DNA from: Candidatus Woesebacteria bacterium
Lineage (GTDB): Bacteria > Patescibacteriota > Microgenomatia > UBA1400 > UBA12028
Direction of reading: 5' to 3'
Length of the DNA: 64,000 bases
Assembly: GCA_040006915.1 (NCBI GenBank)
Contig: JBDTWD010000005.1
Span: 23,394-87,393 of the forward strand
Shown: piece by piece, positions 11,707-64,000 of the stretch
Position numbering within the stretch: position 1 is the stretch's first letter
Layout of the letters: the number at the start of each line of letters is the position of its first letter
Notes under the pieces: generated by a model
What the model was told of the DNA's origin: nothing
The model's database searches: none
What the model saw: the letters and a program-made list of their open reading frames with translations, nothing else
Made by a program: the position numbers and the translations under genes

Positions 11707-13203
11707 TTAATGCGTTTCTTGTTGAGCCTCACCATTCATCGTTTTTTGTCGCAAGGGGGATGGATCTATCCCATGCAAATCACTGATTTCTCTGACTGCT
11801 CGAAACACTAGAGACAAGATCATATCCTCAGTCAGCGAATACATATTAAAAGCAATCGTTGGGAGCGCATACTGCAGATATCCCATTTCAGCTTTTCTTG
11901 TTTCTCCTTCTACAAATGAAGGAATTCCAAATGGCAGCATGTGATGGTCAAGAAACTTGGTTCGGGCTGACGCTTCTCCGCCATACGGTTTATAGAGCTT
12001 TCCTTTTTCATCCATGAAAAATCGCATTCCTCCTGGACTTTCGATCGTGCCTCCACCAGCGATACGAGAAACACCAATCCCTGTTGCTCCCAGTGAGAGA
12101 GTGGTAGCAATATGATCACTTCCCCCACCTTCAACAATGACGGGGATTCCGACACTTCCCCGCATACTCCACACCAGTTGCGGCCAATCAATCACACTTC
12201 CACTGCGCACACCAGTGATACATCGCCCTCCTCCTCCAATCCCCACATATAAACCATCAGCTCCAGCTTTCTCTAATTGCATTGCTTGTTCGACACTGAC
12301 AACTTGTCCGGCAAAAATCTCCACATCTCCATCAAATTTTTTGCGCATTGCTTTGACAGTATCGAGTACCGCCGTTCCTGGCTCTGGTGAATAGACGCGA
12401 AAGACTCTGACGCCAGCGTCATACAAAGCTTTTGCCCGCTTTAACGCATGCACGGGTTGAGTCTCTACTACTCCCATTAAGTTTTGCTTCCACAACGACA
12501 GTAACTGCTCTTTGTCACTACGGCCAATCAGCACTTCACTGGCTTGTAAAGCTTGGTGAGTTTGCAAAACCAAATCTACTTGTCTGCCGATGTCATGAAA
12601 TACGCTGTTACGAGGAACTCCAACCAAACTATGTAATTGCGCCATAGTTGAAAGTGCAGAAACACTCCCATAGATATCCGGCATCGCTGAACCCACCAAT
12701 GGGGAACGGGCAAACTTTCCCAGTTTTACAAACGGACCAAAGCGGAGTCGTTCTGCTCGACCCACACGAGCACGCTGGGCTCCAACTACCTGGACTCCAA
12801 GATCCGAAATGGAGAGCGATAATCCTTCTTGCTCGGCAGATTGCATCACTGGAGAGGAAACGAGCGGAGGTGGAATAAACGGCTTTTTACTGATCGCGAC
12901 AAGTTCTTGGATACGATCAGGGTGATTGAACACTTCCAAGATATACTGACGCACTCGCAACGTCTTGATCATCAACTCTGGAGGGAGGACCATGGTCTGG
13001 GTTGAACCTAAGAAATCAAAAGGAGTTTGCAGCAGCCCTTGACTTGGGTACGCAGTTTTTTCATCTCCGCTTTCTAAAAACCAAAACTTCAAATGGGCGG
13101 AGAGATCTTTTTCTAACGGAGCAAGCTTCGCAAGAATATATGCTTCCCACGAAGCTTCGCGGAAAGAAGAAAAAGGAGGAATGGGATTTTTTACTCTAGC
13201 CAT
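11707..13203 (-). CDS. IMP dehydrogenase/GMP reductase-family TIM-barrel protein with a long N-terminal extension
   Basis: 498 aa. C-terminal 260 aa carry an IMPDH-type barrel (VGIGGGGRCITG with the catalytic Cys loop, glycine-rich phosphate-binding loops). The first 240 aa match nothing I recognise. Confidence 0.5.
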   Translation of the reverse strand: MARVKNPIPPFSSFREASWEAYILAKLAPLEKDLSAHLKFWFLESGDEKTAYPSQGLLQTPFDFLGSTQTMVLPPELMIKTLRVRQYILEVFNHPDRIQELVAISKKPFIPPPLVSSPVMQSAEQEGLSLSISDLGVQVVGAQRARVGRAERLRFGPFVKLGKFARSPLVGSAMPDIYGSVSALSTMAQLHSLVGVPRNSVFHDIGRQVDLVLQTHQALQASEVLIGRSDKEQLLSLWKQNLMGVVETQPVHALKRAKALYDAGVRVFRVYSPEPGTAVLDTVKAMRKKFDGDVEIFAGQVVSVEQAMQLEKAGADGLYVGIGGGGRCITGVRSGSVIDWPQLVWSMRGSVGIPVIVEGGGSDHIATTLSLGATGIGVSRIAGGGTIESPGGMRFFMDEKGKLYKPYGGEASARTKFLDHHMLPFGIPSFVEGETRKAEMGYLQYALPTIAFNMYSLTEDMILSLVFRAVREISDLHGIDPSPLRQKTMNGEAQQETH

Positions 13204-19970: not shown

Positions 19971-21595
19971 CCAAACCAAAACCGGTAGTACTACTAATCC
20001 TTGATGGCTGGGGAATTGGCCCTGCAAACGCGGGTAATGCCATAACCAGAGCCAATACTCCTAACATGCGTAAGTACTGGGTATCGTTTCCCCACACCCA
20101 ACTCACTGCTTCTGGAGAGGCGGTTGGGCTTCCGCGCGGGGAAGACGGCAATACCGAAACTGGTCACTTAAATATTGGTGCAGGAAAGATCGTGTACCAA
20201 GATTTACCACGCATTAATATGAGTATTGCGGATGGTACGTTCGGGACCAATCGCGTCTTCTTAGAAGCTTTTGAACATGTGAAGAAAAATAATTCCGCGT
20301 TGCATTTGATGGGGTTAGTCGGTTCAGGTGGAGTGCACAGCAATATCGAACATCTCTATGCCCTGCTCTCAGCCGCAAAAAAAAATGGCCTCGGAGAAAA
20401 CGTATTCTTACACTTGTTTACAGACGGCCGCGACTCACCCCCAACATCAGCTATTTCATTTGTGACCCAAATCCAAGAACAATGTAAATCGTTAGGGATC
20501 GGACAGATTGCTACCATTATCGGCAGATATTACGCGATGGATCGAGACAAACGCTGGGATCGGACGCAGCTTGCCTACGATGCGCTGACGGTGGGAAGTG
20601 CCACCTGTACGAGTGATCCGCTTGCTATCATCCAGGAGCGATACAAAGCCGGAGAGACCGATGAGTTTATCAAACCAATTTCCGTCTGTGCTCATGATGG
20701 GAAGCCCAAAGTCATCACTGATAAGGATGCAGTCATTTTTTACAACTTCCGTATCGATCGTCCCCGGGAATTAACAAAGGCTTTCGTGCTTCCCAATTTT
20801 GAGAGCGGAATTTCCTCCGAAGGATTCGATCCCTATACAGTCAAATATCACCACACCCATATTCAGCAACAACCAGCAGCTACCCAAACATTTCAGCGTC
20901 AAAAAATTCTTAAAGATTTATATTTTGTGACTATGACTGAGTATGAACGAGGATTGCCGACCAACATTGCCTATCCTCCTCAGACAGTTGAAATGCCGCT
21001 GGGAAGAGTAATCGAACAACGGGCCTTGAAACAACTACGCATGAGCGAGACTGAAAAAGAACGATTTGTTACCTACTATTTTAACGGCTTACGTGAAGAC
21101 GCGTTCAGTGGCGAAGATCACATTATTATCCCCAGTAAAAAAGTAGCGACCTATGATTTGGCTCCGGAAATGAGTGCTCGAGAAATTACTCAAACATTCC
21201 TTGAGAAACTCAATGGCGATTTCTATGACTTCGTCTGTATTAATCTTGCGAACGCCGATATGGTAGGCCATACCGGGAATTTAACTGCAGCAATGAAAGC
21301 AATCGAGATCGTCGATGAGTGCGTCGGTAAGATCGTCGCCGCTGTCACCATTCGAGGTGGGGTAGTCCTCATTACAGCTGATCACGGAAATGCGGAAGAA
21401 ATGATTAACAATGAAACTGGAGAGATCGATACAGAACACTCTGCTTATCCAGTCCCACTGTATCTTATTGGCAACCAATTCCAGAATCAGTCCACTATGC
21501 TGCAATCGGGAATTCTTGCTGACATCGCCCCGACTATATTAAAGTTGATGGATATTCCTAGGCCTGATAGTATGACGGGGCGAGCGCTTTTTTAA
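19967..21595 (+). CDS. gpmI: 2,3-bisphosphoglycerate-independent phosphoglycerate mutase
   Basis: VLLILDGWGIG N-terminus, metalloenzyme-superfamily motifs ADHGN, 542 aa. 4-nt overlap with eno. Confidence 0.9.
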   Translation: MTKPKPVVLLILDGWGIGPANAGNAITRANTPNMRKYWVSFPHTQLTASGEAVGLPRGEDGNTETGHLNIGAGKIVYQDLPRINMSIADGTFGTNRVFLEAFEHVKKNNSALHLMGLVGSGGVHSNIEHLYALLSAAKKNGLGENVFLHLFTDGRDSPPTSAISFVTQIQEQCKSLGIGQIATIIGRYYAMDRDKRWDRTQLAYDALTVGSATCTSDPLAIIQERYKAGETDEFIKPISVCAHDGKPKVITDKDAVIFYNFRIDRPRELTKAFVLPNFESGISSEGFDPYTVKYHHTHIQQQPAATQTFQRQKILKDLYFVTMTEYERGLPTNIAYPPQTVEMPLGRVIEQRALKQLRMSETEKERFVTYYFNGLREDAFSGEDHIIIPSKKVATYDLAPEMSAREITQTFLEKLNGDFYDFVCINLANADMVGHTGNLTAAMKAIEIVDECVGKIVAAVTIRGGVVLITADHGNAEEMINNETGEIDTEHSAYPVPLYLIGNQFQNQSTMLQSGILADIAPTILKLMDIPRPDSMTGRALF

Positions 21596-39455: not shown

Positions 39456-40667
39456 ATGAAAAAAATATTTCCGATCATCATCATCGCTACACTCCTCGTT
39501 GGTGGCGTTGTGATTGGCAAATACACGGGTGTAATTTCTCCAGCTCAAACACATCTTGAAACTTCACCTACTACCCCGGAAGGAATACCAACTGAAGGCC
39601 TTCTCGATCCATCTGGACAGACCCCAGCTCTGACAAATGCTCCGTGGAAAATAGAAGTCGTTGCGACCAACTTATTTGTCCCTTGGAGTATTGTTTTTAC
39701 TTCCCCTACCCGCATGTTGGTGAGTGAGAGAAATGGGAACGTCCAAGTTATTGAAAATGGAAAAAAACAGGAGCAGCCAATTCACACTTTTTCGCAAGTA
39801 AAAACAGAGCAAGAAGAAGGGCTAATGGGAATGACCGCTGACCCTGATTACACCAACAATAGATATCTATATGTTGTGTATGCATACCCGAATGGAAAAG
39901 CGTATACCGACACAGTGGTTCGATTTACTGATAAAGGCGATCATTTTGATGAAGAAAAAACTCTCCTCGATGGTATTCCCGCAGCCAAAGTCCATGCTGG
40001 AAGTCGGATTAAATTTGGACCAGACAAAAAACTGTACATTACAACTGGTGATGCAACCAACAAAGCACTTCCACAAGATATACATGCTTTGGGTGGAAAA
40101 ATTCTACGCATAAACAATGATGGAACTATTCCCTCTGACAATCCTTTCCCTGGCTCACCAGTTTGGACATACGGACATCGCAACCCCCAAGGATTAGCAT
40201 GGAATCCAATTTCTGGAACTCTGATTGAAACGGAACATGGGCCGAGTGGTTTTGATGGTCCTCTGGGGGGAGATGAAGTGAACGTAATCGAAAAGGGCAG
40301 TAACTATGGTTGGCCAGTGGTATCACACAAAGAACATAAAGACGGAATGGTTGATCCACTGTTAGTCTTCACTCCAGCTGTAGCTCCTGCTGCAGGACTC
40401 TTTTATACCGGAAACGTTTTCCCACAATGGAAAAATCATTTCTTTTTTGCGATGTTAAAAGGTGAAGGAATTATGCACGTTGTTTTTGATAGTAATGATC
40501 CTAAAAAAATTCTGCAGTTTGAAAAAGTTTCCAATATTAACGTTGGAAGAATCCGTGAGCTCGCCCAAGGACCGGATGGAAACATCTATTTTTCTACGAG
40601 TAATGAAGATGGTCGTGGTAACGCCAAAAACGGTGACGATAAAATCTATCGGATCGTAAAGCAATAG
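39456..40667 (+). CDS. PQQ-dependent sugar dehydrogenase family (soluble glucose/sorbosone dehydrogenase-like beta-propeller), membrane-anchored
   Basis: N-terminal TM anchor, then GSDH motifs (GLxxxPDY, RINxDGTIPxDNPF, EHGPSGFDG...NYGWP). Confidence 0.75.
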   Translation: MKKIFPIIIIATLLVGGVVIGKYTGVISPAQTHLETSPTTPEGIPTEGLLDPSGQTPALTNAPWKIEVVATNLFVPWSIVFTSPTRMLVSERNGNVQVIENGKKQEQPIHTFSQVKTEQEEGLMGMTADPDYTNNRYLYVVYAYPNGKAYTDTVVRFTDKGDHFDEEKTLLDGIPAAKVHAGSRIKFGPDKKLYITTGDATNKALPQDIHALGGKILRINNDGTIPSDNPFPGSPVWTYGHRNPQGLAWNPISGTLIETEHGPSGFDGPLGGDEVNVIEKGSNYGWPVVSHKEHKDGMVDPLLVFTPAVAPAAGLFYTGNVFPQWKNHFFFAMLKGEGIMHVVFDSNDPKKILQFEKVSNINVGRIRELAQGPDGNIYFSTSNEDGRGNAKNGDDKIYRIVKQ

Positions 40668-60145: not shown

Positions 60146-60640
60146 ATGGTAAGTAAAGCAAAAAGAATGATTTTTGTCTCGGCTCTAGCAATCTCGATTA
60201 TTGGAGCGGGAATGTATGGAACTCGAAGTGTATTTGCACAAGATTCAACCGTGCAATCAACCATTGTGCAAAAGATTGCACAGAAATTTAGCTTGAAGAC
60301 TGAGGAAGTACAAGCAGTCTTTGATCAAGAACGGGCTGATCGTGAGAAGGAAATGGAGGCAAAATATGAGCAAAGGCTCACAGATGCTGTCTCCAAAGGA
60401 GAGCTCACCGAAGAAAAAAAACAACTCATCCTCACCAAACACAAAGAACTTATCTCTAACCGAACAACCAACATGGAGAAATTCAAAGCCATGACCGCAC
60501 AGGAACGGAAAGCGGCAATGCAAAAAGCCAAGACTGATCTTGAAACTTGGGCAAAAGAGAACGGGATCGATGTAAAGTACCTGATGGGAAGAATGGGAAA
60601 TAGAGGTGGATTTGGAAAACACTTTGGAGGGAATAAATAA
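60146..60640 (+). CDS. Secreted hypothetical protein (signal peptide; Lys/Glu-rich helical)
   Basis: TAAGGAGG RBS. Signal peptide MVSKAKRMIFVSALAISIIGAGMYGTRSVFAQD. Confidence 0.5.
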   Translation: MVSKAKRMIFVSALAISIIGAGMYGTRSVFAQDSTVQSTIVQKIAQKFSLKTEEVQAVFDQERADREKEMEAKYEQRLTDAVSKGELTEEKKQLILTKHKELISNRTTNMEKFKAMTAQERKAAMQKAKTDLETWAKENGIDVKYLMGRMGNRGGFGKHFGGNK

Positions 60641-60752: not shown

Positions 60753-63700
60753 ATGATTCAAATCACTCGTTCGTTTAAACACTTTTCTTTTTCTTTTATT
60801 CTCTCTCTCTTTCTTCTCCTTCCTCTCTTAGTCAATCCAGTTCATGTTCATGCCGTACAAACCACGTCGACTTATCAGATCTCTGCTTCAGCCAATGATG
60901 TCAATGAGGTTGGAACAACATATCAAGACACGACTACTCCAGGATGGATTGGCACAGGAGGATCAGCAACAGCTAGCTTCTTGGGATTACGATTTACGAA
61001 TGTCACCGTCCCTCAGAACGCCACAATTGTCTCGGCATACCTACAATTCTTCTCGACCCAATCACAGTGGTTAACGATTGGCTATGATTTAAATGCCGAG
61101 AACGCAGGAAACAGTGCTGCTTTTTCCACTGCCGCAAAGCCATCGGCACGCACGTTAACGACTCAAAAAGTTTCACACAATTCTGACGCGCAGTGGCTCG
61201 CCAACACTTGGTACTCTTCCGATGAACTGAATAGTATTGTCACTGCGGTCACCAGTCGAGCTGATTGGACTTCAGGAAATAGTATGAGTTTTGTTCTCAA
61301 AGGTACGGTTGGTACCTGGGGAAGAAAATTCTTGGCAAGCTACGATACCAGTAGTACAAACGCTCCTAAATTGGTGGTCATCTATGACAGTGCAGGAGGT
61401 ACTCCAACCCCTACCCCGACTGCCACTCCAATCCCTACACCTACTCCAACACCGACAGCAACCCCCGTTCCGACTCCAACTCCTACACCAGTGCCCACCC
61501 CTACACCGACACCAACTCCAGCAGGATTTCAAAACCAAAAAATCATTGTTGGTTTAACTCAACCGACCACTGTAAATTTCACCCCAGATGGTCGTATGTT
61601 AATTGCGGAACGTTTGGGTGCGATCAAAGTTGTGCCAGCCGGACAGACCGCGGTACTTTCTACCCCAGTTTTACAACTGACCAATATCAACATTGATCAA
61701 GGTGAACGAGGACTCGATGGAATGACCGTAGATCCTGACTTTGCCAACAATGGATACATTTATATTTTCTATACTGCCAATTCTCCGCTGCGTGATCGTG
61801 TATCCCGCTTTACCATGGTCGGGAATACCGCAAGCTTGGCAACCGAAACCGTCATTTGGGAGGATAACGTTGATGCGTTCTTTTGGCATCACGGAGGAAC
61901 TCCGGCGTTTGGACCAGATGGCAAACTGTATATCTCAATTGGAGATCATTTTGACCAAACAGCAGGAAGTGGACATGCAGCCCAACGATTAGATAGTTAC
62001 CATGGGAAAATTTTGCGCTTAAACAAAGACGGAAGTGTTCCTACAGACAATCCATTTTTTGATGGAGCCGGTCCAAACCTCGACGCCATCTGGGCAAGAG
62101 GACTGCGAAACCCTTTCCGTATCACTTTTGATTCCACTGCCGGAACAATGTATATCGGTGATGTCGGCGGAAATGATCCAGCTGCCTCCATTGAAGAATT
62201 AAACAAAGGAGTAGCGGGTGCAAACTATGGTTGGCCAATCTGCGAAGGAAGTTGTGCCACTTCAGGAATGACAAACCCCATCTTTAGTTACGGACACGGA
62301 AATCGTGACGCTTCGATTACGGCAGGATTCATTTACCGTGGTACACAGTTCCCGGCCTCATTCGTAGGAAACTTTTTCTACGCTGACTATGCACAAAACT
62401 GGATCAAGCGTTTGGTCTTAAATCCAGACGGATCAGTTGCCAGCAACAATAACTTTGATCCAGCCAATGGAGCCGCAGATACTGCCGAAGGCGATATCAC
62501 TGATGTGAAAGTTGGACCAGAAGGCTCGCTCTATTATGTCGACATCGCTTTGGATAACAATGGCGTGCAAACCGGACCAGGTTCTATCCACAAGATCAGC
62601 TACAACTCAGGGAATTTGCCACCGGTGGTTGCAACAACCTCGGCAACTCCAAACTTTGGAACTGCTCCACTAGCGGTCAATTTCTCGGTAACCGCTACTG
62701 ATCCCGATAACGATGTCCTCTCGTATTTATGGGATTTTGGAGATGGACAAACGGCAACCACAGCATCTGCCTCACATACTTATGCCACCAGCGGTGGATA
62801 TAGTGCCCGAGTCAAAGTTTCTGATCCGACACACGATACGTTCTCAAACCCAATCCAAATTAATGTTGGTGAACCACCAGTTGCGACCATTAGTTCACCG
62901 CTCAATAATGCCACCTTCGTCGGAAATGACGTCATCACCTATACGGGAGATGCCACTGATCCCAATGAAACACTCCAAGACAATCAATTTTCTTGGACGA
63001 TTCTCTTCCATCATGATACGCACGTTCACCCAGCCGCTGGACCTGTGAGTGGAAAAACCGGAACGTTTACTATTCCAACCACCGGACATGATTTTACCGG
63101 AAATGTTTGGTATGAATTAATTCTGACGGTCACTGATAGTACCGGTTTGACCGATACGAAATCGGTGTTTATTTATCCGCAGAAAGTGGCAATTAGTGTG
63201 CAAAGTAATCCTGCAGGAATTCCCTTAAGTTTGGATGTGACGACCTCATCGTCGCCAATCAATGTCAATACATTGATTAATTTCCAGCATAATCTGTCGG
63301 CTCCGACCCAATACGTGCTCGCAGGCAAAACCTATCAATTCACTTCTTGGTCTGATGGTGGAGCCGCAACGCATACCGCTACCATTCCCGCGACCGACAG
63401 AACCTATATTGCAAATTATCAGGAAGTCACCTCAACAGTCAGTGGAAAAGTATTTATTGATACCAATACCAACGGAATTTTAGATGCTGGTGAATCTGGA
63501 TACCAAGGAGCCACCGTCACATTGAGTGGGGCGGCCGGGACGCAAGTGTCGGATGCGACTGGATCATATACGTTTGCAAATCAATCCTTAGGAGCCAAAA
63601 CCGTCACGCTCACCGTTCCCAATGGATATGGATCAACGAGCACCAATCCAGTTTCTCTCACACTCAGCGCGTCACCTGCGACTGCTAATTTCGGAATTGT

Positions 63701-64000
63701 GGTTGCCAATACCCCGGTGACCAAAACCTTTCAAGTCAGTTCCAGTGGAGATGATGTCAATGAAGTAACTGCAGTATTAGATACCACTTCAACGACTGCT
63801 TGGCTTGGAACTGGTGGATCAGCGACTGCAAGCTATACAGGCTTTCGCTTTACCAATGTCACTATCCCGCCGAATGCGACCATCACCTCAGCAAAACTTG
63901 AAGTCTATTCTACTCAGTCCCAATGGATTTCCTTTGGATTCACCATGAAAGCTGATAACGTCGGCAATAGCGCGGTCTTTAGCACCAGTAGTAAGCCATC
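60753..64000 (+). CDS. Giant secreted multidomain surface protein (3'-truncated by the window): signal peptide, novel domain A, Thr/Pro linker, GSDH-type beta-propeller, PKD domain, Ig-like and SdrD-B/Cna-B-like domains, second copy of domain A
   Basis: Single open frame from the ATG at 60753 to the window end (more than 1080 codons). Signal peptide MIQITRSFKHFSFSFILSLFLLLPLLVNPVHVHA. TPTPTPT linker 61398-61522. GSDH motifs (RLNKDGSVPTDNPFF, NYGWP). PKD motif (WDFGDGQTAT...HTYATSGGY). Domain A at about 60885-61150 recurs at 63745 onward. Absent from the ORF track only because it has no stop in the window. Confidence 0.8.
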   Translation, partial: MIQITRSFKHFSFSFILSLFLLLPLLVNPVHVHAVQTTSTYQISASANDVNEVGTTYQDTTTPGWIGTGGSATASFLGLRFTNVTVPQNATIVSAYLQFFSTQSQWLTIGYDLNAENAGNSAAFSTAAKPSARTLTTQKVSHNSDAQWLANTWYSSDELNSIVTAVTSRADWTSGNSMSFVLKGTVGTWGRKFLASYDTSSTNAPKLVVIYDSAGGTPTPTPTATPIPTPTPTPTATPVPTPTPTPVPTPTPTPTPAGFQNQKIIVGLTQPTTVNFTPDGRMLIAERLGAIKVVPAGQTAVLSTPVLQLTNINIDQGERGLDGMTVDPDFANNGYIYIFYTANSPLRDRVSRFTMVGNTASLATETVIWEDNVDAFFWHHGGTPAFGPDGKLYISIGDHFDQTAGSGHAAQRLDSYHGKILRLNKDGSVPTDNPFFDGAGPNLDAIWARGLRNPFRITFDSTAGTMYIGDVGGNDPAASIEELNKGVAGANYGWPICEGSCATSGMTNPIFSYGHGNRDASITAGFIYRGTQFPASFVGNFFYADYAQNWIKRLVLNPDGSVASNNNFDPANGAADTAEGDITDVKVGPEGSLYYVDIALDNNGVQTGPGSIHKISYNSGNLPPVVATTSATPNFGTAPLAVNFSVTATDPDNDVLSYLWDFGDGQTATTASASHTYATSGGYSARVKVSDPTHDTFSNPIQINVGEPPVATISSPLNNATFVGNDVITYTGDATDPNETLQDNQFSWTILFHHDTHVHPAAGPVSGKTGTFTIPTTGHDFTGNVWYELILTVTDSTGLTDTKSVFIYPQKVAISVQSNPAGIPLSLDVTTSSSPINVNTLINFQHNLSAPTQYVLAGKTYQFTSWSDGGAATHTATIPATDRTYIANYQEVTSTVSGKVFIDTNTNGILDAGESGYQGATVTLSGAAGTQVSDATGSYTFANQSLGAKTVTLTVPNGYGSTSTNPVSLTLSASPATANFGIVVANTPVTKTFQVSSSGDDVNEVTAVLDTTSTTAWLGTGGSATASYTGFRFTNVTIPPNATITSAKLEVYSTQSQWISFGFTMKADNVGNSAVFSTSSKP

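Follow-up and report, generated by a model that had tools for sequence, protein, structure and literature searches.

Secreted sugar dehydrogenases in which a GSDH-type propeller is joined to carbohydrate-binding modules (CBMs) have been described before. The fungal enzyme CcPDH consists of an AA8 cytochrome b domain, an AA12 propeller for pyrroloquinoline quinone (PQQ) and a CBM1 module (PMC6881789), and the secretome of Teredinibacter turnerae contains a 143-kDa GSDH with CBM5, CBM10 and cytochrome c (PMC12055684); with these precedents, a sugar-oxidising propeller combined with binding modules is an established design. In the bacterial enzymes the PQQ carboxylates are held by Arg406/Arg408 and Lys377, and the fungal AA12 enzyme swaps some of these residues for other Arg and His (Takeda et al., PMC6881789). 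Among binding modules, CBM96 was founded on the structure 7VBO by Ji et al., who regarded it as the same as the DNRLRE domain and described a resemblance to TGF-beta prodomains (PMC9971899), and DNRLRE domains have been proposed to bind substrate in a polyhydroxybutyrate depolymerase (PMC12278694). The subject here is a gene for a multidomain protein with a GSDH-type propeller, located at 60753-64000 (+) of a 64,000-nucleotide stretch of DNA (the window) from a Candidatus Woesebacteria bacterium (assembly GCA_040006915.1, contig JBDTWD010000005.1, positions 23,394 to 87,393 of the forward strand).

The reading we favour, with a probability of roughly 55%, is that of a secreted modular protein whose terminal modules bind a polymer and whose propeller is catalytic. 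Behind a signal peptide lies a fixed core, made up of the GSDH propeller, a PKD domain, an Ig-like domain with a histidine cluster and a B-repeat-like sandwich, followed by an SdrD-B spacer and flanked at both ends by a repeated domain, called X in the following. The two X modules would bind a polymer or glycan and keep the protein attached to its substrate, a polysaccharide or a cell surface, by analogy with CBM96 in an alginate lyase and a chondroitinase; LamG and lectin modules would presumably act likewise in sister proteins. The propeller would be the catalytic part, probably oxidising a sugar hydroxyl at a site with a His base and an Arg-Asn pair, as in soluble quinoprotein dehydrogenases.

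Gene and domain layout

The frame comprises 1082 stop-free codons from an ATG start, as the first-pass annotation, which reported an uninterrupted frame of more than 1080 codons, had correctly seen. A database search matched its product with 100% identity and 100% coverage to the NCBI protein MEP7167193.1 (P0001), a "PQQ-dependent sugar dehydrogenase" of 1164 amino acids (aa) from a 110-kb contig of a Candidatus Woesebacteria metagenome-assembled genome (Patescibacteria, Microgenomates group), for which NCBI gives the same start codon. The C-terminus was read from this identical protein and from the locus of an orthologue (L001). MEP7167193.1 runs 82 residues beyond the window and its C-terminus, ...RAPRLIVTYQ, is the exact end of the second X copy; the sequence to the true stop, which the first-pass annotation had wanted to see, is thereby supplied, and the protein is large rather than giant, as it had been called. 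Exact 60-mer searches of genome and metagenome contig collections gave 0 matches, so the downstream DNA was not recovered. The orthologue, P0002, is 85% identical, collinear over its full length and stops at the same place. Between the two genes the proportions of synonymous (pS) and non-synonymous (pN) differences are 0.75 and 0.095 (ratio 0.126), and different codons are used at 500 of the 918 identical residues, which identifies a real gene under purifying selection rather than a chance open frame. The frame is thus a real, intact gene for a secreted multidomain protein. Within it lie eight open reading frames (ORFs) of at least 60 aa in other frames; six had been counted before, and their interpretation as shadows of the large gene is upheld.

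The order of domains proposed in the first-pass annotation (signal peptide, X, Thr/Pro linker, GSDH propeller, PKD, two Ig-like sandwiches, SdrD-B, X) proved right, and the features are as follows:

60753-60854 (+), start codon and signal peptide, aa 1-34, MIQITRSFKHFSFSFILSLFLLLPLLVNPVHVHA, from hydrophobicity
60855-61391 (+), domain X copy 1, aa 35-213, a putative diverged DNRLRE/CBM96-like beta-sandwich
61398-61520 (+), Thr/Pro-rich linker, aa 216-256, from the translation; GC at codon position 2 is 0.93
61521-62612 (+), GSDH-type six-bladed beta-propeller, aa 257-620, from Pfam GSDH and PDB sequence matches (2ISM, 3A9G, sGDH)
62613-62867 (+), PKD domain, aa 621-705, from Pfam PKD_4 (E 2e-18) and PKD (E 4.4e-10)
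62868-63167 (+), Ig-like domain, aa 706-805, with invariant H754, H757, H759 and H779
63168-63437 (+), second beta-sandwich, aa 806-895, InlB B-repeat-like, with the motif F-x-SWSDGG and a weak match to Pfam Flg_new_2 (E 0.0019)
63438-63707 (+), SdrD B-like/CnaB-type beta-sandwich, aa 896-985, from Pfam SdrD_B (E 4.5e-11, aa 899-968)
63711-64000 (+), domain X copy 2, aa 987-1082 in the window and completed at aa 1164 outside it, from the hidden Markov model (HMM) envelope at aa 987-1164 in P0001
60664-60697 (+), upstream of the gene, terminator-like hairpin with a 15-pair stem and then a T-run, which ends the preceding 164-aa ORF

The match to Pfam GSDH (PF07995) is nearly complete (aa 268-596, E 4.8e-53), covering positions 1-322 of the 332 in the profile with a score of 181 bits where 25 are required, and the PKD match (aa 624-693, E 2e-18) reaches 66.7 bits against 27 for PF18911 and 39.9 against 23.5 for PF00801; in the PDB this domain resembles the PKD domains of collagenases. 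The region between PKD and SdrD-B (aa 703-895) has weak Pfam matches only (Big_7, Flg_new_2) and was modelled as two beta-sandwiches with a predicted local distance difference test (pLDDT) score of 96.8, the structural neighbours of the model being Ig, Fn3, PKD and pilin modules. An assembly artefact in the Thr/Pro linker was considered and ruled out, since its DNA holds no tandem repeat and the orthologue has the same layout.

In a Kyte-Doolittle scan (19-aa windows, mean above 1.6) the sole strongly hydrophobic stretch is that of the signal peptide at aa 8-35, qualifying windows starting only at aa 8-17, and the signal peptide is predicted to end with ...VHVHA, followed by VQ. The check for a sortase, S-layer or other anchor at the C-terminus that the first-pass annotation had proposed was run on the 1164-aa protein and found no such anchor: there is neither an LPXTG-like motif nor a C-terminal transmembrane or other hydrophobic segment. 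Because of this single N-terminal hydrophobic segment and the lack of LPXTG and of a C-terminal transmembrane segment, the protein is predicted to be secreted and unanchored.

The propeller core and its conserved residues

The query has no fewer than 3,211 matching proteins at E <=1e-5 (a lower bound, as only 8,000 candidates were scored), most of them similar over about 58-60% of its length at ~50% identity. The shared stretch begins with the propeller, has its median end near aa 924 (5th percentile aa 890) and includes at least aa 257-895. The architecture can therefore not be called unusual, as had been suggested, since this GSDH-PKD-Ig-Ig core is common and CBM-bearing secreted GSDH-type proteins have been published. 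Literature searches for characterised GSDH-PKD proteins or for PQQ in Woesebacteria returned nothing beyond the Teredinibacter secretome paper, so that the core of GSDH, PKD, four-His Ig and B-repeat domains, occurring in more than 3,000 protein clusters, is experimentally uncharacterised as far as these searches reach.

In the 120 best homologues the Ig domain with the histidine cluster and the sandwich that follows it are always present (120/120), 14 carry one to three X domains, and about 80, by a count of the Pfam column, have PF13385, which we take to be a LamG/concanavalin-type jelly roll, where the window protein has X; two of the latter are named "LamG-like jellyroll fold domain-containing protein" by NCBI. 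One 963-aa homologue with a single X (P0008, on a 1.06-Mb contig, L002) adjoins an oligopeptide/sugar-type ABC transporter operon and an alpha-L-arabinofuranosidase gene, with a galactokinase gene nearby, which is a loose hint at a context of carbohydrate use in that other genome.

The propeller was aligned to sGDH (1C9U numbering), to 2ISM and 3A9G and to a stand-alone GSDH encoded elsewhere in the window, and conservation was assessed over the 120 homologues. It matches the canonical GSDH chains of the PDB with E-values of 1e-21 to 3e-30. The general base His144 of sGDH corresponds to H379 (61887-61889) and the pair Arg228-Asn229, which contacts the quinone oxygens, to R452-N453 (62106-62111); each is kept in 118/120 homologues. 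The motifs GPDG, GKILR, EE-x-N and NYGWP are retained, further polar residues (E481, E482, Y513, H515, D519, D545 and D597) are conserved, and R456 is specific to the family and conserved in 115/120. Other positions differ from sGDH, in that Gln231 is replaced by F455 and Gln246 by V471, and the segment before V-x-V-G-P-D-G reads "GDITD" here, compared with "GRLRE" in 2ISM and "GRIRE" in the other GSDH of the window. The latter (39456-40667, +; 403 aa) is a stand-alone protein with an N-terminal hydrophobic segment that scores 310 bits on Pfam GSDH and keeps all the canonical PQQ-site residues lost in the large protein (H-RNPQG, EHGP, L-K-G, G-R-I-R-E).

The Ig domain contributes a second conserved feature. 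H754, H757 and H759 (63012-63029, motif W-x5-H-x2-H-x-H-P) and H779 (63087-63089) are conserved in >=99% of the 120 homologues. By the strand order of the model, the C-C' loop contains H754 and H757, with H759 just after it and H779 in the E-F loop, which would bring the four histidines together at one end of the sandwich. The pattern looks like a metal site and may be one; no metal-binding family was matched by sequence, nor a metal-binding fold among the structural neighbours. Should a metal indeed be bound there, this family would be a rewarding subject for enzymological work on extracellular carbohydrate oxidation, including that of bacteria of the candidate phyla radiation (CPR), whose surface biology is poorly known.

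The repeated domain X

The duplication reported in the first-pass annotation is confirmed, with a second copy from aa 987 that is 57% identical to the copy at aa 35-213. The same annotation had recognised no family for the repeat and proposed an HMM search, which bears it out for Pfam only, where X gave no match even at E up to 10. NCBIfam DNRLRE_dom (NF033679) aligns to copy 1 below its cut-off and over practically the whole profile (E 0.006, 16.6 bits, positions 21-163 of 164). Sister proteins that match the X profile at E ~1e-120 (P0143, P0171, P0147 and P0136) reach 38.6-41.9 bits with NF033679, which exceeds the required 34, and 12 of 30 mutually diverse X representatives match it at E <=0.01.

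Structure prediction points to the same superfamily. The AlphaFold2 model of X, for which 14 sequences were used (pLDDT 93.8, predicted template modelling score 0.90), shares the beta-sandwich fold of the two solved CBM96 modules, which are its best structural matches (in Foldseek, 8WAB with E 5.5e-6 and template modelling scores of 0.58-0.60, and 7VBO with E 9e-4). TGF-beta prodomains form the next structural tier, and tyrosinase and aurone-synthase chains are also among the matches. The PDB sequence matches of the X profiles (a narrow one, A1, and a diverse one, A3) were rejected as noise, being antibody light chains picked up through "APKLLIY" and designed Pizza propellers picked up through a short repeated motif; the link of X to the solved CBM96 modules is therefore made by fold and by NF033679. 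On profile and model evidence X is best described as a far-diverged branch of the DNRLRE/CBM96 superfamily and not as a plain member. The first-pass annotation had set up its own test, namely whether the repeat belongs to a known lectin or CBM family and the propeller lacks all cofactor residues, and the answer is divided: the repeat sits in a known CBM superfamily, and the propeller keeps some, not all, of those residues.

A word-index search had returned only eight relatives of X, and the impression of rarity it gave was a sensitivity artefact, since a profile search run exhaustively over 1.84 billion representatives returned 17,226 matches at E <=1e-3 (11,484 at <=1e-10 and 1,850 at <=1e-30). 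A typical relative is 500-5,800 residues long and carries X 2-8 times. A count over the collected sequences gave 487 near-complete copies in 167 proteins (1-8 each), 84 of which end <=10 residues from the C-terminus and 63 of which start within the first 80 residues, and the partner domains include WD40/PD40 propellers, PA14, Calx-beta and SdrD_B. From its copy number, terminal placement and varied partners, X appears to behave as an interchangeable accessory module. In three proteins outside the window (P0144, P0157 and P0145) it is joined to a Kelch propeller of the galactose-oxidase/glyoxal-oxidase type and a GO-like E-set domain; as both GSDH and Kelch oxidase-type propellers carry it, X is present on no fewer than two types of putative extracellular carbohydrate oxidase. 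With its 17,226 cluster representatives, X makes up a large and well-conserved branch of DNRLRE/CBM96 that Pfam does not detect and that in many cases scores under the NCBIfam threshold.

Genomic context, alternatives and related systems

The first-pass annotation had noted a raised GC content at this gene, which is confirmed (0.47, compared with 0.39-0.43 in neighbouring genes) and is nothing special. The rise is mostly compositional, because the excess lies at codon position 2 (0.513 vs 0.33-0.40 in the neighbours) in a protein rich in Thr, Ser, Ala, Gly and Pro. Horizontal transfer was rejected as its cause on the same ground and because GC at the third codon position (0.403 vs 0.32-0.40) only equals that of the highest neighbour measured. 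Two other 1-kb bins of the window have a raised GC content similar to that of this gene, at 12001-13000 (0.491) and 20001-21000 (0.471). Upstream of the gene, the ORF at 60146-60640 (+) encodes 164 aa, hydrophobic near the N-terminus and otherwise rich in Lys and Glu, and has no Pfam match; this small, putatively secreted ORF is syntenic at the orthologue locus (L001, 242-730), where the genes downstream of the orthologue have no Pfam matches. The hairpin between this ORF and the large gene suggests that the latter is transcribed on its own.

Several observations weigh against a catalytic, polymer-bound protein. Some of them concern the cofactor. Lys377 of sGDH (canonical L-K/R-G) is A547, with a family consensus of A/V, and the R-x-R of Arg406/Arg408 is D581-I-T583 (62493-62501), with D/E at 581 and V at 583 in the family; 2ISM and the stand-alone GSDH of the window have K/R and R-x-R at these places. 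The calcium loop E-H/Q-G-P has become D470-V-G-G and is two residues shorter, although the ligands at that loop are main-chain carbonyls (Gly247/Pro248 in sGDH), so that the side-chain sequence is not decisive. NCBIfam TIGR03606 (non_repeat_PQQ) is matched with 101.6 bits against a cut-off of 434.55. Neither PQQ synthesis nor a respiratory chain is known from CPR bacteria. For the binding modules, the X copies of the window score 16.6 and 18.4 bits on NF033679, below the cut-off of 34, and the X profiles did not reach 7VBO or 8WAB among PDB sequences. The neighbours in the window have housekeeping functions (mutS, mutL and ABC transporters, for instance) and give no functional hint, and binding and catalysis are both deduced from sequence and fold. 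The inspection of cofactor residues proposed in the first-pass annotation hence has a mixed outcome, with the catalytic His and the Arg-Asn pair kept and the Lys and R-x-R clamps lost. Because these carboxylate clamps are replaced throughout the GSDH-PKD subfamily, its PQQ dependence is not established from sequence. An alternative mode of PQQ binding is possible, since the fungal AA12 enzyme also replaces clamp residues, and the family-specific invariants R456, H515, Y513 and D519 could contribute to it. The name "PQQ-dependent sugar dehydrogenase" should be used with caution, as it is based on fold-level similarity across the subfamily and may be an over-annotation for thousands of proteins.

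The loss of the clamps would also suit a protein that does not catalyse at all. The propeller could be a binding platform, as in Hedgehog-interacting protein (HHIP), and the whole a surface adhesin that attaches an episymbiotic CPR cell to its host or to a matrix. HHIP, which has the GSDH fold, is among the PDB matches (E 1.5e-13), and its propeller works as a binding domain that is not known to use PQQ; the PKD, Ig and SdrD-B scaffold is typical of adhesins, and X also occurs in giant multi-copy proteins without a detectable catalytic domain. On the other hand, the near-invariant His and Arg-Asn pair and the many conserved polar residues of the propeller form a pattern like that of an active site, and the protein has no cell-wall anchor motif, which makes this explanation unlikely, if the least so of the alternatives considered. 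Somewhat more doubtful is a distinct class of secreted oxidoreductases that would bind the cofactor in a non-canonical way or use another one in place of PQQ, in which a metal (e.g. Cu) in the histidine-cluster Ig domain would relay electrons, playing the part of the cytochrome domain of the AA12 enzyme CcPDH, and interchangeable modules (X/CBM96-like, LamG, lectins) would set the target polymer. Such a class would account for the conservation of the four histidines, for their probable position at the same sandwich end, for the constant company of the Ig domain and next sandwich with the propeller, and for the family-wide replacement of the clamps by D/E, V and A alongside a conserved R456. 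It is weakened by the failure of the Ig domain to match a metal-binding family by sequence and by the fact that the clustering is read from topology alone.

A third explanation turns to the ends of the protein and takes the terminal X domains as latency or pro-domains that shield an enzyme until they are removed, comparable to TGF-beta prodomains and to the C-terminal shielding domains of bacterial tyrosinases, which have this fold in common with X. The tyrosinase and aurone-synthase chains in the structural match lists and the frequent position of X at extreme termini are in line with it, yet a protein may contain X as many as 8 times, in tandem or dispersed, X is also found in proteins without a recognisable enzyme domain, and neither copy here adjoins the propeller, since a Thr/Pro linker of 40 residues intervenes before it and four domains after it; as no processing site is evident either, we regard this as very improbable. 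Taken together, a secreted protein with polymer-binding X modules and a catalytic propeller is the reading we retain. The protein itself was already deposited and named, and it is mostly ordinary, since many other proteins have the same core architecture and the repeat is common as well. What is gained is the assignment of an "unknown" repeat to the DNRLRE/CBM96 superfamily; beyond that, two features keep some interest, namely that the PQQ clamps are lost across the whole subfamily and that an invariant four-His domain goes with the propeller in all cases.

Among known systems, the solved relatives of X are the CBM96 modules 7VBO, the alginate-binding TM6-N4 of Defluviitalea phaphyphila Dp0100, and 8WAB, a chondroitin-sulfate-binding module of a chondroitinase. 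X resembles them in size (~178 residues compared with ~165-180), in its full-length match to NF033679, in its second-tier likeness to TGF-beta prodomains and in its use as an accessory module of multidomain secreted proteins. It differs from them in having only 9-11% identity to the solved modules and in the motifs of its own branch (SxDDVNE, GTGGS, LRFTNVxIP, W-x-ANTWY, R-x-DW and APRLVVTY). The known CBM96 ligands are polyanions, and TM6-N4 binds polysaccharide via a surface groove with Lys27 and Arg36, whereas X is rich in Trp/Tyr and Ser/Thr and not visibly basic.

As to the rest of the protein, HHIP is a eukaryotic receptor-like protein with a GSDH-fold propeller, and the window protein differs from it in keeping the catalytic His and the Arg-Asn pair; in comparison with a sortase-anchored adhesin of the MSCRAMM (microbial surface components recognizing adhesive matrix molecules) type such as SdrD, it is without LPXTG and the hydrophobic sorting signal and ends with ...RLIVTYQ. 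With the stand-alone GSDHs (sGDH of Acinetobacter calcoaceticus 1C9U, Asd of Escherichia coli 2G8S, and the enzymes of Thermus thermophilus, 2ISM, and Pyrobaculum aerophilum, 3A9G) it has in common the six-bladed propeller, the His and the Arg-Asn pair, and unlike these canonical enzymes it fuses the propeller to PKD, two Ig-like domains and binding modules. CcPDH and the T. turnerae GSDH differ from it in their cytochrome domains and in the family of their binding modules; what the window protein shares with them is a secreted GSDH-fold propeller tethered to putative carbohydrate-binding modules, a likeness of shared fold (PMC6881789, PMC12055684).

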